A stretch of 64,000 nucleotides of DNA, from the NCBI RefSeq assembly GCF_003018115.1, contig NZ_CP027457.1; one strand, written 5' to 3'. A model generated the notes under the pieces. It saw only the letters and a list, made by a program, of their open reading frames with translations. It was not told where the DNA came from and ran no database searches. Position numbers and translations under genes: made by a program. Shown one piece after another: positions 21,825 through 32,139 of the stretch. The stretch comes from Escherichia coli. GTDB lineage: Bacteria > Pseudomonadota > Gammaproteobacteria > Enterobacterales > Enterobacteriaceae. Numbering within the stretch: position 1 is the first letter of the stretch; the number at the start of each line of letters is the position of its first letter.

Positions 21825-22739
21825 TCACTCAAAATAGTCCATATCCAGTTTCGGCACCTTCAACAAACGTGAAGAAACCCCTACTTCGTTTTCGATCATT
21901 AAGTGCACCAGGCGTTCCCCATCAACCAACACCATACCCTCGACGGATTGAGCAAAGTCACGCGCCTGAGACGTAAATCCAGAAGTGGTAATAAACACCC
22001 CACGTTTCGCCTTTTGCCCAGCCAGTGCGCCGTAAAATGCCTGTAATTCTGGCCTGCCTACAGTGTTCTGCCAACGTTTTGCCTGAACATAAACTTTCTC
22101 CAGGCCAAGTTTATCAAGCGATATCACACCATCGATGCCACCATCTCCAGTACCGCCAACACGCTGCAAATCATCACGGTGGCCGCCATACCCCAGGCGA
22201 TGCAAAACATCCAGAACAATGACTTCAAAGCGCGAAGGAGAAACCTGCAATAAGTTTTCCAGAACCTCATCAGCCACCGCATCACTAAGCTCTTTTAGCG
22301 CCTGATCTAACCGATCGTCCGGGCTGCTCTTTGCAAGTTCTTCATGATCGGGAGAGTCGGCTTTCGGATCTAAATCGACGGCATCCGGCCGTGACTTAAG
22401 TTTGACATTCACAAAATCGAAGGCCAGATGGTTCGTCTCCTGCTCCGTCATTGGCTGGGGATGAGACGCAACCCAGTCAAAACCCGCAGGAGTCAGGCAC
22501 CATTTGCCACGCGACAAACTTTGCGACAACCCGGCACGTTTTAAACGGTCATGCGCCCAGCCTGCACGATTTTTATAAACAAGTTGTCCGCTGGTAATGA
22601 CTTTCGCTCGCTGGCTGTCATCCAGTCCTAATGCATCCGCGGCAGCCTCATGAACATCACGCGCGGCTGCACCTTCCGGTTTTGTCGCCAGATAACGCAG
22701 AACAGGTTCAATAAATTTGTCATAGGTAGGAACCGTCAT
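21825..22739 (-). CDS. mrr: Mrr type IV restriction endonuclease (restricts methylated adenine/cytosine DNA)
   Basis: 304-aa ORF MTVPTYDKFIEPVLRYLATKPEG... with C-terminal Mrr-cat PD-(D/E)xK region; matches Mrr as recalled. Confidence 0.9.
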   Translation of the reverse strand: MTVPTYDKFIEPVLRYLATKPEGAAARDVHEAAADALGLDDSQRAKVITSGQLVYKNRAGWAHDRLKRAGLSQSLSRGKWCLTPAGFDWVASHPQPMTEQETNHLAFDFVNVKLKSRPDAVDLDPKADSPDHEELAKSSPDDRLDQALKELSDAVADEVLENLLQVSPSRFEVIVLDVLHRLGYGGHRDDLQRVGGTGDGGIDGVISLDKLGLEKVYVQAKRWQNTVGRPELQAFYGALAGQKAKRGVFITTSGFTSQARDFAQSVEGMVLVDGERLVHLMIENEVGVSSRLLKVPKLDMDYFE

Positions 22740-22926: not shown

Positions 22927-25900
22927 ATGATGAATAAATCCAATTTTGAATTCCTGAAGGGCGTCAACGACTTTACCTATGCCATCGCCTGTGCGGCGGA
23001 AAATAACTACCCGGATGATCCCAACACGACGCTGATTAAAATGCGTATGTTTGGCGAAGCCACAGCGAAACATCTTGGTCTGTTACTCAACATCCCCCCT
23101 TGTGAGAATCAACACGATCTCCTGCGCGAACTCGGCAAAATCGCCTTCGTTGATGACAACATTCTCTCTGTATTCCACAAATTACGCCGCATTGGTAACC
23201 AGGCGGTGCACGAATATCATAACGATCTCGACGATGCCCAGATGTGCCTGCGACTCGGGTTTCGCCTGGCTGTCTGGTACTACCGTCTGGTCACTAAAGA
23301 TTATGACTTCCCGGTGCCGGTGTTTGTGTTGCCGGAACGTGGTGAAAACCTCTATCACCAGGAAGTGCTGACGCTAAAACAACAGCTTGAACAGCAGGTG
23401 CGAGAAAAAGCGCAGAGTCAGGCAGAAGTCGAAGCACAACAGCAGAAGCTGGTTGCCCTGAACGGCTATATCGCCATTCTGGAAGGCAAGCAGCAGGAAA
23501 CCGAAGCGCAAACCCAGGCTCGCCTTGCTGCACTGGAAGCACAGCTCGCCGAGAAGAACGCGGAACTAGCCAAGCAGACCGAACAGGAACGTAAGGCTTA
23601 CCACAAAGAAATTACCGATCAGGCCATCAAGCGTACACTCAATCTTAGCGAAGAAGAGAGCCGCTTCCTGATTGACGCGCAACTGCGTAAAGCAGGCTGG
23701 CAGGCCGATAGCAAAACCCTGCGCTTCTCCAAAGGCGCGCGCCCGGAACCCGGCGTCAATAAAGCCATTGCCGAATGGCCGACCGGGAAAGATGAAACGG
23801 GTAATCAGGGCTTTGCGGATTATGTGCTGTTTGTCGGTCTCAAACCCATCGCGGTGGTAGAAGCGAAACGTAAAAATATCGACGTTCCCGGCAAGCTCAA
23901 TGAGTCGTATCGCTACAGTAAATGTTTCGATAATGGCTTCCTGCGGGAAACCTTGCTTGAGCACTACTCACCGGATGAAGTGCATGAAGCGGTGCCGGAG
24001 TATGAAACCAGTTGGCAGGACACCAGCGGCCAACAACGGTTTAAAATCCCCTTCTGCTACTCGACCAACGGGCGCGAATACCGCGCAGCGATGAAGACTA
24101 AAAGTGGCATCTGGTATCGCGACGTGCGTGATACCCGCAATATGTCGAAAGCCTTACCCGAGTGGCATCGCCCGGAAGAGTTGCTGGAAATGCTCGGCAG
24201 CGAACCGCAAAAACAGAATCAGTGGTTTGCCGATAATCCCGGCATGAGCGAGCTGGGCCTGCGTTATTATCAGGAAGATGCCGTCCGCGCGGTTGAAAAG
24301 GCAATCGTCAAGGGTCAACAAGAGATCCTGCTGGCGATGGCGACCGGTACCGGTAAAACCCGCACCGCAATTGCCATGATGTTCCGCCTGATCCAGTCCC
24401 AGCGTTTTAAACGCATTCTCTTCCTTGTGGATCGCCGTTCTCTTGGCGAGCAGGCGCTGGGGGCGTTTGAAGATACGCGTATTAACGGCGACACTTTCAA
24501 CAGCATTTTCGACATTAAAGGGCTGACGGATAAATTCCCCGAAGACAGCACCAAAATTCACGTTGCCACCGTACAGTCGCTGGTGAAACGCACCCTGCAA
24601 TCGGATGAACCGATGCCGGTAGCCCGTTACGACTGTATCGTCGTCGATGAAGCGCATCGCGGCTATATTCTCGATAAAGAGCAGACCGAAGGCGAACTGC
24701 AGTTCCGCAGCCAACTGGATTACGTTTCTGCCTACCGTCGTATTCTCGATCACTTCGATGCGGTAAAAATTGCTCTCACCGCCACCCCGGCGCTGCATAC
24801 GGTGCAGATTTTCGGCGAGCCGGTTTACCGTTACACCTACCGTACCGCGGTTATCGACGGTTTTCTGATCGACCAGGATCCGCCGATTCAGATCACCACC
24901 CGCAACGCACAGGAAGGGGTTTATCTCTCCAAAGGCGAGCAGGTTGAGCGCATCAGCCCGCAGGGGGAAGTGATCAACGACACCCTGGAAGACGATCAGG
25001 ATTTTGAGGTCGCCGACTTTAACCGTGGCCTGGTGATCCCGGCGTTTAACCGCGCCGTCTGTAACGAACTCACCAACTACCTTGACCCGACCGGGTTACA
25101 AAAAACGCTGGTCTTCTGCGTCACCAATGCCCATGCCGATATGGTGGTGGAAGAGTTGCGTACCGCGTTCAAGAAAAAGTATCCGCAACTGGAGCACGAC
25201 GCGATCATCAAGATCACCGGTGATGCCGATAAAGACGCGCGCAAAGTGCAGACCATGATCACCCGCTTCAATAAAGAGCGGCTGCCCAATATTGTCGTAA
25301 CCGTCGACCTGCTGACGACCGGCGTCGATATTCCGTCGATCTGTAATATCGTGTTCCTGCGTAAAGTACGCAGCCGTATTCTGTACGAGCAGATGAAAGG
25401 CCGCGCCACGCGCTTGTGCCCGGACGTGAATAAAACCAGCTTTAAGATTTTCGACTGCGTCGATATCTACAGCACGCTGGAGAGCGTCGATACCATGCGT
25501 CCGGTGGTGGTGCGCCCGAAGGTGGAACTGCAAACGCTGGTCAACGAAATTACCGATTCGGAAACCTATAAAATCACCGAAGCGGATGGCCGTAGCTTTG
25601 CCGAGCACAGCCATGAACAACTGGTGGCGAAGCTCCAGCGCATCATCGGCCTGGCCACGTTTAACCGTGACCGCAGCGAAACGATAGATAAACAGGTGCG
25701 TCGTCTGGATGAGCTATGCCAGGACGCGGCGGGCGTGAACTTTAACGGCTTCGCCTCGCGCCTGCGGGAAAAAGGGCCGCACTGGAGCGCCGAAGTCTTT
25801 AACAAACTGCCTGGCTTTATCGCCCGTCTGGAAAAGCTGAAAACCGACATCAACAACCTGAATGATGCGCCGATCTTCCTCGATATCGACGATGAAGTGG

Positions 25901-26439
25901 TGAGTGTAAAATCGCTGTACGGTGATTACGACACGCCGCAGGATTTCCTCGAAGCCTTTGACTCGCTGGTGCAACGTTCCCCGAACGCGCAACCAGCATT
26001 GCAGGCGGTGATTAATCGCCCGCGCGATCTCACCCGTAAAGGGCTGGTCGAGCTACAGGAGTGGTTTGACCGCCAGCACTTTGAGGAATCTTCCCTGCGC
26101 AAAGCGTGGAAAGAGACGCGCAATGAAGATATCGCCGCCCGGCTGATTGGACATATTCGCCGCGCTGCGGTGGGCGATGCGCTGAAACCGTTTGAGGAAC
26201 GTGTCGATCACGCGCTGACGCGCATTAAGGGCGAAAACGACTGGAGCAGCGAGCAATTAAGCTGGCTCGATCGTTTAGCGCAGGCGCTGAAAGAGAAAGT
26301 GGTGCTCGACGACGATGTCTTCAAAACCGGCAACTTCCACCGTCGCGGCGGGAAGGCGATGCTGCAAAGAACCTTTGACGATAATCTCGACAGCCTGCTC
26401 GATAAATTCAGCGATTATATCTGGGACGAGCTGGCCTGA
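22927..26439 (+). CDS. hsdR: Type I restriction enzyme R subunit (family IA), SF2 helicase/translocase plus nuclease
   Basis: 1170-aa ORF MMNKSNFEFLKG...; motifs MATGTGKT (Walker A) and VVDEAHRG (DEAH); matches EcoKI-type HsdR as recalled. Confidence 0.95.
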   Translation: MMNKSNFEFLKGVNDFTYAIACAAENNYPDDPNTTLIKMRMFGEATAKHLGLLLNIPPCENQHDLLRELGKIAFVDDNILSVFHKLRRIGNQAVHEYHNDLDDAQMCLRLGFRLAVWYYRLVTKDYDFPVPVFVLPERGENLYHQEVLTLKQQLEQQVREKAQSQAEVEAQQQKLVALNGYIAILEGKQQETEAQTQARLAALEAQLAEKNAELAKQTEQERKAYHKEITDQAIKRTLNLSEEESRFLIDAQLRKAGWQADSKTLRFSKGARPEPGVNKAIAEWPTGKDETGNQGFADYVLFVGLKPIAVVEAKRKNIDVPGKLNESYRYSKCFDNGFLRETLLEHYSPDEVHEAVPEYETSWQDTSGQQRFKIPFCYSTNGREYRAAMKTKSGIWYRDVRDTRNMSKALPEWHRPEELLEMLGSEPQKQNQWFADNPGMSELGLRYYQEDAVRAVEKAIVKGQQEILLAMATGTGKTRTAIAMMFRLIQSQRFKRILFLVDRRSLGEQALGAFEDTRINGDTFNSIFDIKGLTDKFPEDSTKIHVATVQSLVKRTLQSDEPMPVARYDCIVVDEAHRGYILDKEQTEGELQFRSQLDYVSAYRRILDHFDAVKIALTATPALHTVQIFGEPVYRYTYRTAVIDGFLIDQDPPIQITTRNAQEGVYLSKGEQVERISPQGEVINDTLEDDQDFEVADFNRGLVIPAFNRAVCNELTNYLDPTGLQKTLVFCVTNAHADMVVEELRTAFKKKYPQLEHDAIIKITGDADKDARKVQTMITRFNKERLPNIVVTVDLLTTGVDIPSICNIVFLRKVRSRILYEQMKGRATRLCPDVNKTSFKIFDCVDIYSTLESVDTMRPVVVRPKVELQTLVNEITDSETYKITEADGRSFAEHSHEQLVAKLQRIIGLATFNRDRSETIDKQVRRLDELCQDAAGVNFNGFASRLREKGPHWSAEVFNKLPGFIARLEKLKTDINNLNDAPIFLDIDDEVVSVKSLYGDYDTPQDFLEAFDSLVQRSPNAQPALQAVINRPRDLTRKGLVELQEWFDRQHFEESSLRKAWKETRNEDIAARLIGHIRRAAVGDALKPFEERVDHALTRIKGENDWSSEQLSWLDRLAQALKEKVVLDDDVFKTGNFHRRGGKAMLQRTFDDNLDSLLDKFSDYIWDELA

Positions 26440-26515
26440 CACGGTATCATTCCCGGCAATTTCTTCTTCTGCGGCCCAATAAATTTGGGCCGCTGCTTAA
26501 TTTACGGAACACCCA

Positions 26516-28105
26516 ATGAACAATAACGATCTGGTCGCGAAGCTGTGGAAGCTGTGCGACAACCTGCGCGATGGCGGCGTTTCCTATCAAAACTACGTCA
26601 ATGAACTCGCCTCGCTGCTGTTTTTGAAAATGTGTAAAGAGACCGGGCAGGAAGCGGAATACCTGCCGGAAGGCTACCGCTGGGATGACCTGAAATCCCG
26701 CATCGGCCAGGATCAATTGCAGTTCTACCGTAACCTGCTGGTACATCTGGGCGCCGACAATCAAAAGCTGGTGCAGGCGGTGTTCCAGAACGTCAACACC
26801 ACCATTACCCAGCCAAAACAGTTGACCGAACTGGTCACAAATATGGATTCGCTGGACTGGTATAACGGTGCGCACGGTAAGTCGCGCGATGACTTCGGCG
26901 ATATGTACGAAGGGCTGTTGCAGAAGAACGCCAACGAAACCAAGTCTGGCGCGGGCCAGTACTTCACCCCGCGTCCGCTGATTAAAACCATTATTCATCT
27001 GCTGAAACCGCAGCCGCGTGAAGTGGTGCAGGACCCGGCAGCAGGTACGGCGGGCTTTTTGATTGAAGCCGACCGCTACGTTAAGTCGCAGACCAATGAT
27101 CTGGACGACCTTGATGGCGATACGCAGGATTTCCAGATCCACCGCGCGTTTATCGGCCTCGAACTGGTGCCCGGCACCCGTCGTCTGGCGCTGATGAACT
27201 GCCTGCTGCACGATATTGAAGGCAACCTCGACCACGGCGGCGCAATCCGTCTGGGCAACACTCTGGGTAGCGACGGCGAAAACCTGCCGAAGGCGCATAT
27301 TGTCGCCACTAACCCGCCGTTTGGCAGCGCCGCAGGCACCAACATTACCCGCACCTTTGTTCACCCGACCAGCAATAAACAGTTGTGCTTTATGCAGCAT
27401 ATTATCGAAACGCTGCACCCCGGCGGTCGTGCGGCGGTGGTGGTGCCGGATAACGTGCTGTTTGAAGGCGGCAAAGGCACCGACATTCGTCGTGACCTGA
27501 TGGATAAGTGTCATCTGCACACTATTCTGCGTCTGCCGACCGGTATTTTTTACGCGCAGGGCGTGAAAACCAACGTGCTGTTCTTTACCAAAGGCACGGT
27601 GGCGAACCCGAATCAGGATAAGAACTGCACCGATGATGTGTGGGTGTACGACCTGCGTACCAATATGCCGAGCTTCGGCAAGCGCACGCCGTTTACTGAC
27701 GAACATCTGCAGCCGTTTGAGCGGGTGTATGGCGAAGATCCCCACGGCTTAAGCCCGCGCACTGAAGGCGACTGGGAATTCGACGCAGAAAAAAGTGAAA
27801 TTGCCGACAGCGAAGAGAACAAAAACACCGACCAGCATCTGGCTACCAGCCGCTGGCGCAAGTTCAGCCGCGAGTGGATCCGCACCGCGAAATCCGATTC
27901 GCTGGATATCTCCTGGCTGAAAGATAAAGACAGCATTGACGCCGACAACCTGCCGGAGCCGGATGTATTAGCGGCAGAAGCGATGGGCGAGCTGGTACAG
28001 GCGCTGGGCGAACTGGATGCGTTGATGCGTGAACTGGGGGCGAGCGATGAGGCGGATGCACAGCGTCAGTTGCTGGAAGAAGCGTTTGGTGGGGTGAAGG
28101 AATGA
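26516..28105 (+). CDS. hsdM: Type I restriction-modification M subunit (N6-adenine methyltransferase)
   Basis: 529-aa ORF; catalytic NPPF motif and AdoMet-binding region (DPAAGTAGFL). Confidence 0.95.
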   Translation: MNNNDLVAKLWKLCDNLRDGGVSYQNYVNELASLLFLKMCKETGQEAEYLPEGYRWDDLKSRIGQDQLQFYRNLLVHLGADNQKLVQAVFQNVNTTITQPKQLTELVTNMDSLDWYNGAHGKSRDDFGDMYEGLLQKNANETKSGAGQYFTPRPLIKTIIHLLKPQPREVVQDPAAGTAGFLIEADRYVKSQTNDLDDLDGDTQDFQIHRAFIGLELVPGTRRLALMNCLLHDIEGNLDHGGAIRLGNTLGSDGENLPKAHIVATNPPFGSAAGTNITRTFVHPTSNKQLCFMQHIIETLHPGGRAAVVVPDNVLFEGGKGTDIRRDLMDKCHLHTILRLPTGIFYAQGVKTNVLFFTKGTVANPNQDKNCTDDVWVYDLRTNMPSFGKRTPFTDEHLQPFERVYGEDPHGLSPRTEGDWEFDAEKSEIADSEENKNTDQHLATSRWRKFSREWIRTAKSDSLDISWLKDKDSIDADNLPEPDVLAAEAMGELVQALGELDALMRELGASDEADAQRQLLEEAFGGVKE

Positions 28106-29430
28106 GTGCGGGGAAATTGCCAGAGGGGTGGGTTGAAACTCAATTAGAAAATATCGTTGATATTTTAGACTCAATGCGTGTCCCGGTTAATAATTCTGAG
28201 AGACAATCACGCATTGCAGGAAAAAAAGAAAATGAACTTTATCCCTATTTTGGTGCTACCGGTGAAGTCGGTAAAATTGATGATTATATTTTTGATGAAG
28301 AACTTGTTGCATTAGGTGAAGATGGTGTTCCTTTTTTTGATGGGCACAAAAATAAGGCTTATATGCTGTATGGTAAAACGTGGGTGAATAATCATGCTCA
28401 TGTAATAAGAGCTATCTCTGGACTAAGCCATAACAAGTATTTATGCCATTATCTTAACCAATTCGACTATCATGATTATGTAAACGGCGGGACCAGGCTT
28501 AAACTTACACAAGCGAATATGAGAAAACTACCTGTTAGTTTAGCGCCTCTCGCCGAACAAAAAATCATCGCAGAAAAACTCGATACGCTGCTGGCGCAGG
28601 TAGAGAGCACCAAAGCACGTCTTGAGCAAATCCCACAAATCCTGAAACGTTTTCGTCAGGCGGTGTTGGCTGCTGTTGTTAATGGAAAATTATCAAAGAA
28701 CACGAAGCAATGGGAAATATACTTATTAAAAAATCTTTGTACTAGCATTTCAGATGGCGATCATCAGGCTCCTCCAAAATCAGAAACAGGAGTGCCTTTC
28801 CTCGTAATCTCCGATGTTAATAAAGGGGTGATTGATTTTGATAATGTAACCAGATGGGTGCCTGAATCTTACTACCAATCGCTAAAAGAAATTAGAAAAC
28901 CATGCCAATATGATATTTTATATACAGTTACAGGTTCTTATGGAATACCTGTAATTGTTAACGACAATAAACCATTTTGTTTCCAGCGACATATTGCCAT
29001 CATCAAGCCAAACAGAAATTTAATTGATCATAGATTCTTAGCTTTCTATTTAGAATCACCACAAATTCTCAAACATGCAAGTGATGTTGCTACTGGGACC
29101 GCACAAAAAACAGTATCGCTGTCGAGTCTCCGAAATTTTGAGATCTCTGTTCCCCCTTTAAAAGAACAACACGAAATCGTTCGTCGCGTCGAGCAACTCT
29201 TCGCCTACGCCGACACTATTGAAAAACAGGTCAACAACGCCCTGGCCCGCGTCAACAACCTGACGCAATCCATTCTGGCAAAAGCGTTCCGTGGTGAACT
29301 CACCGCCCAGTGGCGGGCCGAAAACCCGGAATTGATCAGCGGAGAAAACAGCGCCGCCGCGTTGCTGGAGAAAATCAAAGCTGAACGCGCAGCCAGCGGG
29401 GGTAAAAAAGCCTCGCGTAAAAAATCCTGA
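28102..29430 (+). CDS. hsdS: Type I restriction-modification S (specificity) subunit, family IA, with two target-recognition domains unlike EcoKI
   Basis: 442-aa ORF overlapping the hsdM stop (ATGA). Conserved N-terminus MSAGKLPEGWV, central LAEQKIIAEKLDTLLAQVESTKAR... and C-terminal EIVRRVEQLFAYADTIEKQV... repeats match IA-family HsdS as recalled; the two TRD-coding stretches are markedly AT-rich. Confidence 0.9.
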   Translation: MSAGKLPEGWVETQLENIVDILDSMRVPVNNSERQSRIAGKKENELYPYFGATGEVGKIDDYIFDEELVALGEDGVPFFDGHKNKAYMLYGKTWVNNHAHVIRAISGLSHNKYLCHYLNQFDYHDYVNGGTRLKLTQANMRKLPVSLAPLAEQKIIAEKLDTLLAQVESTKARLEQIPQILKRFRQAVLAAVVNGKLSKNTKQWEIYLLKNLCTSISDGDHQAPPKSETGVPFLVISDVNKGVIDFDNVTRWVPESYYQSLKEIRKPCQYDILYTVTGSYGIPVIVNDNKPFCFQRHIAIIKPNRNLIDHRFLAFYLESPQILKHASDVATGTAQKTVSLSSLRNFEISVPPLKEQHEIVRRVEQLFAYADTIEKQVNNALARVNNLTQSILAKAFRGELTAQWRAENPELISGENSAAALLEKIKAERAASGGKKASRKKS

Positions 29431-29442
29431 ACATTATTTTCT

Positions 29443-29467
29443 GGCGCACCTTTCCGGTGCGCTTTTA
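29443..29467 (+). terminator. Terminator hairpin after hsdS
   Basis: GGCGCACC-tttcc-GGTGCGC followed by TTTTAATT. Confidence 0.55.
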
Positions 29468-29564
29468 ATTATTTCACGCCAATCATAATTCACGCAAATA
29501 TATTTAAATCACTCCAGAAATTGCCCATTTTATTCTATTTTTAGCTGGACTTTCCCTGTATTTA

Positions 29565-29580
29565 CTGATGATATATCCAG
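29565..29580. promoter_or_regulatory. LexA (SOS) box CTG-N10-CAG upstream of symE
   Basis: CTGATGATATATCCAG read directly, with an overlapping second CTGTATTTACTG half-site; symE is known to be SOS-induced. Confidence 0.5.
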
Positions 29581-29584
29581 GTAT

Positions 29585-29665
29585 TTAGCGCGGTGCGGAT
29601 GTGCGCCAACACACCCGCACCGCTCATCACAATCACTATTTATGGAGAATAGTAATCATGACTGA
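29585..29665 (-). ncRNA. symR: Approximate position of SymR antisense sRNA (type I antitoxin) opposite the symE 5' UTR/start codon
   Basis: Placed by established knowledge that SymR is transcribed antisense across the symE translation-initiation region; a 9-bp-stem hairpin GCGGTGCGG...CCGCACCGC (29590..29623) is visible. Ends are not determinable from sequence alone. Confidence 0.4.
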
Positions 29666-29999
29666 CACGCATTCTATTGCACAACCGTTCGAAGCAGAAG
29701 TCTCCCCGGCAAATAACCGTCAATTAACCGTGAGTTATGCGAGCCGCTACCCGGATTACAGCCGTATTCCCGCCATCACCCTGAAAGGTCAGTGGCTGGA
29801 AGCCGCCGGTTTTGCCACCGGCACGGCGGTAGATGTCAAAGTGATGGAAGACTGTATTGTCCTCACCGCCCAACCCGCCGCCGCCGAAGAGAGCGAACTG
29901 ATGCAGTCACTGCGCCAGGTGTGCAAACTGTCGGCGCGTAAACAAAAGCAGGTGCAGGAGTTCATTGGGATGATTGCGGGTAAACAGAAAGTCGCCTGA
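29658..29999 (+). CDS. symE: SOS-induced toxin SymE (AbrB/MazE-fold, type I TA system)
   Basis: Translation from [52 protein letters not shown]... (113 aa); start set at the internal Met with GGAGAA upstream, by recall of SymE. Confidence 0.85.
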
Positions 30000-30045: not shown

Positions 30046-32139
30046 TTATACCAACGCGCTCTCCATCTGTTTTTCAAATGCCTGACGAATTAATCCCATA
30101 ATATAAGGAAGTTGTGCGAGGTCGCTGAAACCAATTTCCACATCGCCATTGCCCCATCGCCCAACATTTGTCACATCTTTGGCAATACCTTTCGGATCGA
30201 CCAGTTCATGAAACTGCATATTAAGCGACAATCGCAGTCGGCTTTTTTGCGGCACAACATCAACAAAATTCGTTTCAGCTTTAAACGCAATATAGAGCTT
30301 CAATACTTCCTGCGTGATCCCTGCGTCCAGGCGCATAACTTCATCGCTAAGATGATCGAATAACACCCGGCTATGCGAACCATCAGCAAGAAAAGGATAA
30401 TCACTCAGGCTGTAACTGGTTTTGTTTTCCGGCTGCCCCCGATAAACAGCTAAAACCTCTTCAGGAAGAGAAGGCGCTTGCCAGACCTGAACCGCGAGAT
30501 CGGCCAGACGATCGGCTCGGGCGTGAATGGCGGCTTCATCCCATTTTTCGCACTGTCCAAGACCGATATTCAAATAAAGCGGGCTATGCTTAAAGCCGTC
30601 TTCAATATCGCGTTTTTCCGCGAAAGGTCTGTCACTGTAGCGGGAGTTATAGCGCGTTAAAGTGAGATTCCCCAACGTATGTAACAGTTCTTTATGCACA
30701 CGCTGCCAGTCGCTTCCCAGCTCTTCGCGCCATTTAGCCGACAAATTTTCGTTCTGCGGCATAATATGTTCAATCGTAAACTCTTCCACGCGCTCTCTGC
30801 GTTTATCGTTTTCCAGTCGTCGTAACCAGTAGCTGCGACTACGGAAGTTATAGAGATCGCGAACTTTTAATTCCCGTTTAAATTCATCATCGTTGGGGAA
30901 ACGACGATATGAAGGTAGATTCAAAAAATGTACCTGAATACTTTCCAGATAATTTTCTTTATTAATAACTTTATAAAAAGTGGCAAATGTCTTGTTCAAA
31001 GAATTTGTCGGAATTGCACATACTGCACGGCGGAAAACATAAGATTCAATTAAACGAATTATGCTCAGGAAATCTTCGTGAGACAAATCGTCATTTTTAT
31101 AGTCATGATAAAGCGCCAGTAAGAAAGGATACGCCACATCAACCTTTAACTCGCGCAAATCCTGAAAAGCCGTAGCAAGCGATTTGTCACTTTCTTTTCC
31201 CAATGCCATTGCACAGTAATACTCCGCGTAGATGTGAATATCTTCAACCAGCCGATCTACGCCTTTTTCAGCAACACTCTGGCTGCGGGCATGGAGTTTA
31301 AATGCCTCATAGACTTCATCTGTCCGAGGGATCTCCCCCGTTTTTACCGTCAGATAATGACGCATAAAACTGTCAAAATATTCGCTGTAACCTTGCTGAC
31401 CAAAAGCGACTTCCATTGGACGCCAGTGATCTTCATACAACCGGGTTTGATGCTCTGGTTCGAGGCCCATCAGAATAAAATTGCGCACCAGATCGGCCTG
31501 ACTTAACGCCTTACCGGTGGAGTTCATACTTTCAAAAATCAGTTGCGGATTATCCTGACCACGATTAAGCGCCACATCGACAATTAATAACTTTGCTAAC
31601 CCACGACATAAGGGGATCAAGTCATCACCGAGTTTGGCAATTTGCTCATCAAAGAAAGTAAAGTTTTCCATTATTCGATGGGAATAGTTTTCTGGCATTG
31701 GTCTTTGTTTTATTAACGCCAGTAAACTGTCTTTATCAGTCTCGGTCAGCAGTAATTTAAAACCTTTCTCGCCGGACTCATAAGGATTGAGCAAATAATA
31801 ATTACGCAATTTCATTGCCGAAAAGCCATCAAAAACTTCGTCTTCGCCAAGATGGCGCGATAAAGCCTCAATCAGCAACATTGCGGTCGTCAGCCGCTGC
31901 TGACCATCAATGACCAGCAACGGAGAAATACCAGAAACCTGATACAATCCCTGCTCTATATAAACAACCGAACCGATAAAATGCGCTGATATATCGTCAC
32001 GCTTTCCTGCACGAATGATGTCGTCCCAAAGTTGCCGACATTGTTGCCCGGTCCATGAATAAGTCCGTTGATAAATGGGAATAACAAACTGCTGCGAACG
32101 TTTTAAAAAATCGAGTAGGCGAGCTTCTGTAGCTTTCAT
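30046..32139 (-). CDS. Single-chain GmrSD-family protein (N-terminal DUF262 ParB-like NTPase, C-terminal DUF1524 His-Me finger nuclease); putative type IV modification-dependent restriction endonuclease
   Basis: 697-aa ORF; N-terminal motifs FVIPIYQRTYSW and DGQQRLTT (DUF262); C-terminal EHIMPQ ... LGNLTL (DUF1524/HNH-like). Gene is AT-rich relative to flanks and sits where mcrBC lies in K-12. Confidence 0.8.
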   Translation of the reverse strand: MKATEARLLDFLKRSQQFVIPIYQRTYSWTGQQCRQLWDDIIRAGKRDDISAHFIGSVVYIEQGLYQVSGISPLLVIDGQQRLTTAMLLIEALSRHLGEDEVFDGFSAMKLRNYYLLNPYESGEKGFKLLLTETDKDSLLALIKQRPMPENYSHRIMENFTFFDEQIAKLGDDLIPLCRGLAKLLIVDVALNRGQDNPQLIFESMNSTGKALSQADLVRNFILMGLEPEHQTRLYEDHWRPMEVAFGQQGYSEYFDSFMRHYLTVKTGEIPRTDEVYEAFKLHARSQSVAEKGVDRLVEDIHIYAEYYCAMALGKESDKSLATAFQDLRELKVDVAYPFLLALYHDYKNDDLSHEDFLSIIRLIESYVFRRAVCAIPTNSLNKTFATFYKVINKENYLESIQVHFLNLPSYRRFPNDDEFKRELKVRDLYNFRSRSYWLRRLENDKRRERVEEFTIEHIMPQNENLSAKWREELGSDWQRVHKELLHTLGNLTLTRYNSRYSDRPFAEKRDIEDGFKHSPLYLNIGLGQCEKWDEAAIHARADRLADLAVQVWQAPSLPEEVLAVYRGQPENKTSYSLSDYPFLADGSHSRVLFDHLSDEVMRLDAGITQEVLKLYIAFKAETNFVDVVPQKSRLRLSLNMQFHELVDPKGIAKDVTNVGRWGNGDVEIGFSDLAQLPYIMGLIRQAFEKQMESALV

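Follow-up and report, generated by a model that had tools for sequence, protein, structure and literature searches.

A rare hsdS allele in an apparently functional type IA restriction-modification locus of Escherichia coli, with a predicted target other than those of EcoKI and EcoBI

The locus described here is very probably a complete, apparently functional type IA (EcoKI-family) restriction-modification system with a rare hsdS allele, built by recombination, whose predicted target is neither that of EcoKI nor that of EcoBI. Its genes and domains in the window (the whole 64-kb stretch of DNA that was analyzed) are as follows.

21825..22739, minus strand: mrr, a 304-aa ORF; type IV restriction gene, left flank of the immigration control region
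22927..26439, plus strand: hsdR, 1170 aa; type IA restriction/translocase subunit
26440..26515, plus strand: spacer between hsdR and hsdM, which has a terminator-like hairpin (26471-26493) and lacks the insert of about 124 nt found in K-12
26516..28105, plus strand: hsdM, 529 aa; m6A methyltransferase subunit
28102..29430, plus strand: hsdS, 442 aa; specificity subunit, ATG start
28102..28134, plus strand: conserved N-terminus of hsdS, aa 1-11 (MSAGKLPEGWV)
28135..28545, plus strand: TRD1, the N-terminal target-recognition domain, aa 12-148
28546..28692, plus strand: central conserved region, aa 149-197; first dimerisation helix and recombination site
28693..29160, plus strand: TRD2, the C-terminal target-recognition domain, aa 198-353
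29161..29430, plus strand: C-terminal conserved region of hsdS and stop codon, aa 354-442; second dimerisation helix and tail
29443..29463, plus strand: terminator-like hairpin, 13 nt past the hsdS stop codon
29658..29999, plus strand: symE, with a Pfam SymE_toxin match; adjoins hsdS as in K-12

The gene order yjiA, mrr, hsdR, hsdM, hsdS, symE is that of K-12, and the system is allelic with EcoKI. By blastn, the flanks of the locus are 97% identical to K-12 DNA, and Mrr shares 99.3% identity with K-12 Mrr. Both neighbors are annotated in the identical region of strain 2014EL-1345-2, symE at an equal offset. The hsdM stop codon and the hsdS start overlap as ATGA, and the hairpin that follows hsdS has an 8-pair stem with 6 G-C pairs, followed by TTTAATTATT.

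All three subunit genes, R, M, and S, carry the Pfam domains characteristic of type I systems. An earlier note, made from the DNA sequence alone, had described hsdR and hsdM as K-12-like, and our comparison bears this out. HsdR is 98.9% identical to its EcoKI counterpart (13 substitutions), matches HSDR_N, ResIII, Helicase_C, and EcoEI_R_C, and keeps the nuclease EAK (312), Walker A GTGKT (474), and DEAH (574) motifs at their K-12 positions. HsdM shares 96.0% identity with EcoKI HsdM, the substitutions being concentrated at residues 66-108 and 419-429; it matches N6_Mtase and HsdM_N and also keeps motif I DPAAGTAGF (173) and motif IV NPPF (266) at the K-12 positions. At the DNA level hsdR and hsdM are 94-97% identical to K-12, a closeness at which DNA cross-hybridisation and subunit complementation with EcoKI, as expected within the type IA family, are predicted. 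The hsdR, hsdM, and hsdS genes are intact, and their lengths equal those of K-12 except in the TRDs.

Two stretches of HsdS match Pfam Methylase_S (E 7e-39). The protein shows three IA conserved segments separated by two variable domains, which is the type IA domain order, described as S1-D1-S2-D2 for this family (PMC3874165). With a scaffold 90-98% identical to that of EcoKI HsdS, its fold is in no doubt. As the earlier note had proposed, the conserved segments are kept: 11/11 residues of the N-terminus, 44/49 of the central region (90%; 91% to K-12 in DNA), and 87/89 of the C-terminal region (98%) are identical to EcoKI. Compared to EcoBI, the central region is identical at 45/49 residues (92%) and the C-terminal region at 96%. 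The two variable regions had been placed at 28135..28550 and 28690..29160, and the limits given by blastn agree to within a few bases. Alignment against the K-12 locus covers 26454-28134, 28546-28691, and 29159-29995, and no similarity is found for 28135-28545 or 28692-29158, within the TRDs. At the protein level, TRD1 is identical to EcoKI TRD1 at 20/137 residues (15%) and TRD2 to EcoKI TRD2 at 38/156 (24%), so the claim that both variable regions are unlike the EcoKI domains holds. Both are also shorter than those of EcoKI, by 12 and 10 residues. BLAST of TRD1 against the EcoKI and EcoBI TRDs gave no match to either, and TRD2 had no significant match to the EcoKI TRDs. The only significant alignment in this panel was a weak one between TRD2 and EcoBI TRD2 (24.5% identity, E 2e-11).

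The variable regions were further said to be AT-rich, and they are. The GC content is 57.6% in the N-terminal 33 nt, 35.8% in TRD1, 47.6% in the central region, 36.3% in TRD2, and 55.1% in the C-terminal region, against a window mean of 50.7%; a sliding profile runs at 0.34-0.41 inside the TRDs versus 0.55-0.59 in hsdM. As a mark of this allele, however, AT-richness fails. It is no evidence of a new specificity, because the TRDs of EcoKI (35.1% and 34.3% GC) and EcoBI (37.3% and 31.6%) are equally AT-rich, and all other alleles examined lie at 34-41%.

Each TRD of a type I enzyme specifies a half-site independently of the other (PMC3874165). Given this, the low identity of both TRDs to those of EcoKI makes the EcoKI target very unlikely, and the DNA sequence that the strain marks and cuts is almost certainly different from EcoKI's. 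The divergence of the TRDs, with no BLAST match, thus supports the earlier prediction of a target other than AAC(N6)GTGC. An enzyme that still recognizes AAC(N6)GTGC would be a case of convergent specificity. TRDs that are about 36% identical can share a half-site, as do StySKI's N-terminal TRD and EcoR124I's C-terminal TRD (PMC3874165), and HsdM, HsdR, and HsdS share the EcoKI scaffolds. Convergence would nevertheless be needed in both TRDs, at 15% and 24% identity and with no significant BLAST alignment, and the TRD2 type maps, via a Klebsiella allele described below, to a motif without a GTGC/GCAC half; we regard convergence as improbable in the extreme.

The EcoBI target, TGA(N8)TGCT, is hardly a better candidate. 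One database source lists this very sequence as 'Type I restriction enzyme EcoBI specificity protein', and the weak TRD2 match to EcoBI TRD2 points the same way. Compared to the HsdS of REL606, however, TRD1 is only 18% and TRD2 26% identical overall, and the N-terminus agrees at 2/11 residues. With TRDs this distant the label is wrong, and it has the look of an automated transfer prompted by the common conserved regions. An EcoBI isoschizomer is highly improbable. Because neither TRD is related to its counterparts in EcoKI and EcoBI, the target is predicted to be neither AAC(N6)GTGC nor TGA(N8)TGCT. A search with the full-length HsdS protein returned no match named for a characterized enzyme, save automatic 'EcoKI' labels.

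The coiled coil of HsdS and the division of work between HsdM and HsdR are established knowledge of the type I family. In the window enzyme, the central and C-terminal helices of HsdS would pair into an antiparallel coiled coil that holds the two unrelated globular TRDs at a fixed spacing. Two HsdM subunits would dock on HsdS, each half of the bipartite, asymmetric target receiving one methylated adenine from them, and the complex with two HsdR subunits would translocate and cut DNA that lacks these marks. As in other type I systems, m6A would lie on both strands of the target, and cleavage would require ATP and fall at a distance from it. The interval between methylated positions is 8 bp in all the IA enzymes of Table 1 of PMC3874165 and is predicted to be the same for this enzyme.

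Three ETEC O169:H41/ST182 chromosomes carry hsdS DNA 100% identical to that of the window, and the exact HsdS protein is on record for 258 contigs. Its accession is WP_001719439.1 (CJV63_RS15170 in CP024223, with further copies in CP024269 and LR882990), and the genomes concerned are described as sequenced by long reads or PacBio. Among 5426 complete E. coli genomes, TRD1 occurs in 9 and TRD2 in 8; distant-mode DNA searches of E. coli genomes found no diverged copies of either TRD in well-studied strains. Each domain also occurs in other company. Strain WP2-S18-ESBL-07 and allele P0184 pair the window TRD1 with other TRD2s, and strain TC24 and allele P0173 pair the window TRD2 (96-97% identical) with other TRD1s. 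Strains WEC and YZLc4-1 likewise have TRD1 in common with the window, AREA_C483 and 1218KP have TRD2, and the Klebsiella P0151 type has both. Compared to the GF31 allele, TRD1 is 99.8% identical in DNA and TRD2 only 96.2%. Orthologues with both TRDs, 83-87% identical, are present in Salmonella, Klebsiella, and Citrobacter. The allele would have arisen when recombination in its conserved segments brought together TRDs from a pool common to Enterobacteriaceae. A phase-variable (shufflon-type) system, which would have additional hsdS copies or half-genes along with inverted repeats and a recombinase close by, was also considered and rejected: tblastn with HsdS finds the gene itself only, with no second hsdS copy or half-gene in the whole 64-kb window.

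TRD1 is 84% identical to its Klebsiella orthologue with a dN/dS of 0.03, and the dN/dS of TRD2 is 0.13; by these ratios, the TRDs are under strong purifying selection. Together with the identity of the protein on 258 contigs, this argues against a silent or inactive system, one that is unexpressed or has a non-functional S subunit and gives no type I methylation from the locus. Two observations could favor such a system. Between hsdR and hsdM, the window has 124 nt less than K-12 (the gap in the blastn alignment is 10 nt in the window and 134 nt in K-12), and a simple promoter scan of the DNA upstream of hsdM turned up no strong sigma-70 match. In addition, some strains, HS-01 among them, carry related alleles in visible decay. 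However, the short intergenic form is shared by Klebsiella loci, and here all three ORFs run to full length and the catalytic motifs are intact. A silent locus is therefore unlikely, and we retain an apparently functional system as the preferred reading.

A lead to the half-site of TRD2 comes from P0235, a common K. pneumoniae allele (446 aa) with a different TRD1 and a TRD2 83% identical to that of the window. In K. pneumoniae 13190, the motif GGCAN8TCG was assigned to the genes peg4583/peg4582 (Tables S6 and S8; PMC9684165). Primers for these genes match the hsdS 5' end and the hsdM 3' end exactly in every P0235 locus, and have no match to P0151 loci. The same motif was reported for an ST147 isolate with an S gene of 1341 nt (PMC7985491), which is also the length of the P0235 gene. 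P0235 is tentatively linked to GGCA(N8)TCG in this way, by primers and gene length and not by the full S-subunit sequence. We infer that it is the CG147 system reported with GGCA N8 TCG, which is M.KpnAATIV in REBASE (PMC9684165).

The motif GGCA(N8)TCG fits the 8-bp methylation interval of IA enzymes. The N-terminal TRD of P0235 matches the C-terminal TRD of EcoR124 (E 1.8e-16), whose half-site is RTCG, read as CGAY; the identity is 36%, which is no guarantee of equal specificity. Since the P0235 N-terminal TRD resembles a CGAY-reading TRD, GGCA/TGCC is left for the shared C-terminal TRD. TRD2 of the window may then read GGCA, giving a target of the form 5'-(N-TRD half-site containing methylated A)...TGCC-3'; we put this forward with somewhat less than even confidence, and a base change or degeneracy could lie concealed behind the 83% identity of the E. 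coli and Klebsiella TRD2s. At the IA interval of 8 bp from one methylated position to the other, the target would tentatively be, for example, xxA(N8)TGCC or xAx(N7)TGCC.

The half-sites could also be reversed, the shared C-terminal TRD reading CGA (3' TCG) and the Klebsiella N-terminal TRD reading GGCA. TRDs are able to occupy either position (PMC3874165), and the orientation of GGCA(N8)TCG was not experimentally fixed in PMC9684165 or PMC7985491. We consider a reversal unlikely, given the resemblance of the Klebsiella N-terminal TRD to the CGAY-reading TRD of EcoR124. Moreover, in all classical IA enzymes it is the N-terminal TRD that reads the 3-bp half-site (Table 1, PMC3874165), and the only match of TRD2 to a TRD of a characterized enzyme is to EcoBI TRD2, which reads TGCT. 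In the literature, searches for a GGCA/TGCC half-site with N6-N8 spacers brought up only the two Klebsiella papers (PMC9684165, PMC7985491); none is given in the methylome papers on E. coli ST131, E. coli ST101, and Salmonella.

No comparable lead was obtained for TRD1. A TRD1-only search of a collection of 5.8 billion proteins returned only short or fragmentary S proteins with uninformative names. On this search the TRD1 family is widespread, with 44-72% identity in the aligned fragments, some of them named Verrucomicrobia or Elusimicrobia, and related TRDs lie on Enterococcus plasmids. No half-site was found for any member of the family. A profile of TRD1 homologues run against PDB sequences matched mostly in the conserved helical region and hit no TRD of known specificity. 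In tblastn of each TRD against plasmids, the best matches (54% in Enterococcus, 53% in Deinococcus) were too distant for transfer of a half-site.

The published literature yielded no methylome, REBASE record, or restriction assay for strains carrying the allele, and the ETEC reference-genome paper makes no mention of methylation or restriction. The allele may specify a target not yet reported for characterized type I enzymes, combining a new N-TRD half-site with TGCC at IA spacing, and may give the ETEC O169:H41/ST182 clone a barrier and a methylation signature specific to its lineage, a proposal on which the balance leans only slightly to the negative. For this clone, the allele predicts what incoming DNA (plasmids, phages, cloning vectors) would be restricted and which m6A motif long-read data should show. 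The locus offers a clean case from nature of how TRDs are shuffled at the immigration control region of E. coli, with the same TRDs circulating in Klebsiella and Salmonella. Conceptually it brings nothing new and is an ordinary new allele of a known family. Swapping of hsdS alleles is well known for the immigration control locus. That TRD exchange varies hsdS specificity within this family has been clear since the 1980s for type IA (PMC3874165).

Among known systems, EcoKI (E. coli K-12 hsdRMS, AAC N6 GTGC) occupies the same mrr-symE site with the same gene order and ATGA overlap, and differs from the window system in its two TRDs and in its hsdR-hsdM insert; downstream, K-12 has mcrBC where the window has a GmrSD-type gene. 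EcoBI (E. coli B, TGA N8 TGCT) belongs to the same family and locus and is close in the central and C-terminal regions, but its N-terminus is different, its TRD1 unrelated, and its TRD2 a distant relative. P0235 likewise has IA-type hsdR, hsdM, and hsdS, with conserved regions 89-90% identical to the window. Its N-terminal TRD, of the EcoR124 C-terminal type, is unlike the window TRD1, and it lies in an integrase-bounded island with yjiV and yjiT instead of the mrr-symE context. In StySQ and StySJ, recombination in the conserved central region produced new pairings of N- and C-terminal TRDs (PMC3874165), a pattern also seen among the natural alleles compared here. Those enzymes are lab-made or lab-selected hybrids of Salmonella parents of known specificity, whereas the window allele is natural.

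The hsdS gene under study lies in the E. coli immigration control region; the gene order mrr, hsdR, hsdM, hsdS, symE agrees with the annotation of K-12 and of strain 2014EL-1345-2. The features of the locus are:

21825-22739, minus strand: mrr
22927-26439, plus strand: hsdR
26516-28105, plus strand: hsdM
28102-29430, plus strand: hsdS, an ORF of 442 aa with a Pfam Methylase_S match in two stretches
29443-29463: terminator-like hairpin after hsdS

The hsdM stop codon and the hsdS ATG overlap as ATGA, and the reading frames of hsdR, hsdM and hsdS are all uninterrupted. HsdM motif I (DPAAGTAGF) and motif IV (NPPF), and the nuclease EAK, Walker A GTGKT and DEAH of HsdR, are present at K-12 positions. 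The 64-kb window contains no second hsdS copy or half-gene; the system is therefore not phase-variable in the shufflon manner. The hsdR-hsdM intergenic region (26440-26515) is 76 nt long, versus 200 nt in K-12 (6735-6934 of L001, the K-12 locus) and REL606; it is also short, about 71 nt, in the Klebsiella IA loci. The extra ~124 nt of K-12 resembles an ERIC/IRU-type repeat (GTGAATCCCCGGGAGCGTACAGAAGTACGTGACCGGGGTG, reverse strand).

The ETEC strain 2014EL-1345-2 is near-identical to the window, with 3 nt differences over 15.4 kb. This match ends at ~34481 (position 15380 of L002, the 2014EL-1345-2 locus), with 3 mismatches before and divergence after. An IS66-family element is annotated in 2014EL-1345-2 just downstream (L002 15466-17861), and its insertion may have caused the divergence. 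At the K-12 mcrBC position, the window has one uninterrupted 697-aa ORF (30046-32139, minus strand) with GmrSD_N, GmrSD_C and DUF5655 domains, a candidate type IV restriction gene. On identical 2014EL-1345-2 DNA, RefSeq gives one 387-aa gene and a partial pseudogene instead, a split that looks like an annotation artefact.

Mrr, HsdR and HsdM are 99.3%, 98.9% and 96.0% identical to their K-12 counterparts, which bears out the K-12-like hsdR and hsdM of the earlier note, whereas whole HsdS is only 41% identical. Within hsdM, two patches (26754-26903 and 27654-27803) show 83-85% nucleotide identity to K-12 in 150-nt windows against 93-99% in the remainder, and the HsdM amino-acid changes cluster at residues 66-108 and 419-429. 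The two low-identity patches suggest mosaic recombination within hsdM.

We divided HsdS at conserved anchors and compared each segment with EcoKI. Identity is complete over the N-terminal 11 residues, 90% over the central 49 and 98% over the C-terminal 89, so that the IA conserved segments are kept, as had been claimed. TRD1 (aa 12-148) and TRD2 (aa 198-353) are only 15% and 24% identical to those of EcoKI. The K-12 blastn alignments cover 26454-28134, 28546-28691 and 29159-29995 of the window, with none for 28135-28545 or 28692-29158; the variable regions first placed at 28135..28550 and 28690..29160 were thus right to a few bases. The AT-richness noticed in them is real (35.8% and 36.3% GC, compared with 55-58% at the hsdS ends and 50.7% in the window) but not diagnostic: EcoKI TRDs have 35.1% and 34.3% GC, EcoBI TRDs 37.3% and 31.6%, and TRDs are likewise AT-rich in every other allele examined. 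AT-richness is a trait of the TRD pool and no sign of a difference from EcoKI; it is the sequence itself that differs.

The two TRDs of an HsdS act independently, each setting one half-site (PMC3874165). Since neither TRD has significant similarity to the EcoKI TRDs, AAC(N6)GTGC is a very unlikely target, in support of the earlier prediction of another one. In one source the exact protein is called 'EcoBI specificity protein'; its TRDs are 18% and 26% identical to those of REL606 HsdS and its N-terminus is different. Judged by these alignments, the label is an annotation-transfer error.

The exact HsdS protein is recorded for 258 contigs, and a CAD-type accession is listed for it in the cluster look-up. 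The hsdS DNA is 100% identical in 3 complete chromosomes, F8111-1SC3, O169:H41 strain 2014EL-1345-2 and LR882990. The accession series and the ST182/O169 match suggest that LR882990 is E1373, which serves in PMC8085198 as reference genome for lineage L7 (ST182/O169); the accession itself is absent from that paper. The allele is rare: of 5426 complete E. coli genomes, 9 contain TRD1 and 8 contain TRD2 (megablast and sensitive blastn agree). Full-length orthologues (83-87% identical) that carry the two TRDs together are found in Salmonella enterica, Klebsiella pneumoniae, K. aerogenes and Citrobacter. Compared with a Klebsiella orthologue, TRD1 has a dN/dS of 0.03 and TRD2 one of 0.13, with synonymous sites near saturation, which indicates that both TRDs are maintained by selection.

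TRD1 and TRD2 travel independently. Strains WP2-S18-ESBL-07, WEC and YZLc4-1 and allele P0184 have an N-terminal TRD identical to window TRD1 and an unrelated C-terminal TRD; strains TC24, AREA_C483 and 1218KP and allele P0173 have an unrelated N-terminal TRD and a C-terminal TRD 96-97% identical to window TRD2. HS-01 (L007 1501-2879) carries a frameshifted copy of window TRD1, 90% identical in nucleotides, with a decayed, EcoBI-like TRD2 containing many stop codons. Compared with the GF31 allele, DNA identity is 99.8% in TRD1 and only 96% in TRD2 plus the C-terminal region. Such a mosaic is what recombination in the conserved helices is expected to produce; within the IA family, that mechanism is established from the hybrids StySQ and StySJ (PMC3874165). 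The TC24 hsdS (L005 1493-2887) is annotated as two partial pseudogenes, yet forms a single in-frame 464-aa ORF without stop codons, in which a non-IA N-terminus and TRD1 are fused to a window-type TRD2. The IA hsdRMS genes of K. pneumoniae (L018-L021, 3329-21033) sit within an integrase-bounded island ordered int, hsdR, hsdM, hsdS, YjiV-like helicase, YjiT. The helicase is intact there (2106 aa), whereas yjiV is a pseudogene in K-12; the island may show how part of the E. coli immigration control region looked in an ancestral, mobile state.

A tentative lead on the TRD2 half-site came from P0235, a 446-aa allele that is very common in K. pneumoniae (6463 index blocks list it). Its N-terminal TRD differs from that of the window, while its C-terminal TRD shares 83% identity with window TRD2 and is identical to the one in P0151, the full orthologue from Klebsiella. 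In CG147 strain 13190, GGCAN8TCG was assigned to the M gene peg4583 and the S gene peg4582, a pair 100% identical to M.KpnAATIV (PMC9684165, Tables S6, S8). The primers printed for this pair, ATGAGTGAGGGGAAATTGC and TCATACCTTCACCTCACCAA (M13F_F and M13F_R; PMC9684165 Table S19), are exact matches to the 5' end of hsdS and the 3' end of hsdM in 6/6 fetched P0235 loci and in 0/8 P0151 loci. As printed they diverge at the hsdS start and hsdM end (compared with L018 9985-10019), and thus identify the locus but could not amplify an M plus S cassette. For Kp1264, an isolate of ST147, GGCA(N8)TCG was reported independently (PMC7985491); the S gene there has 1341 nt, exactly the length of the P0235 gene. 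The methylated positions of this motif are 8 bp apart, the interval listed for every IA enzyme (PMC3874165); CCAGN7RTTC, the other chromosomal CG147 motif, lacks this interval and its M gene begins with non-IA sequence. Because of the primers, the gene length and the 8-bp interval, P0235 is quite probably the GGCA(N8)TCG enzyme.

The P0235 N-terminal TRD aligns with the C-terminal TRD of EcoR124 HsdS (E 1.8e-16, 36% identity), which reads CGAY, complementary to its RTCG half-site. With the half-site of the N-terminal TRD placed first, P0235 would tentatively recognise CGA(N8)TGCC, and the common C-terminal TRD would read GGCA. Two weaker observations also favour GGCA for this TRD: the 3-bp half-site lies at the N-terminal TRD in all classical IA enzymes (PMC3874165), and the sole BLAST match of window TRD2 to a characterised enzyme's TRD is EcoBI TRD2, which reads TGCT. 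The low dN/dS makes transfer of the half-site across 83% identity plausible, and a 3' half-site TGCC is possible for the window enzyme, at somewhat less than even chance. For TRD1, database, PDB-profile and plasmid searches returned no characterised relative; the homologues found were all uncharacterised and at most 72% identical. IA geometry predicts xxA(N8)TGCC, xAx(N7)TGCC or similar.

These results are useful in strain engineering and in reading the methylomes of ETEC ST182, and are unsurprising. In all that sequence can test, the locus conforms to the type IA family: its position is allelic, HsdR and HsdM are near-identical to those of EcoKI, and HsdS has the order S1-D1-S2-D2 with the conserved segments typical of IA. 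Its TRDs match neither EcoKI nor EcoBI specificity. By sequence, it is a new, uncharacterised type IA system of a kind already thoroughly known.
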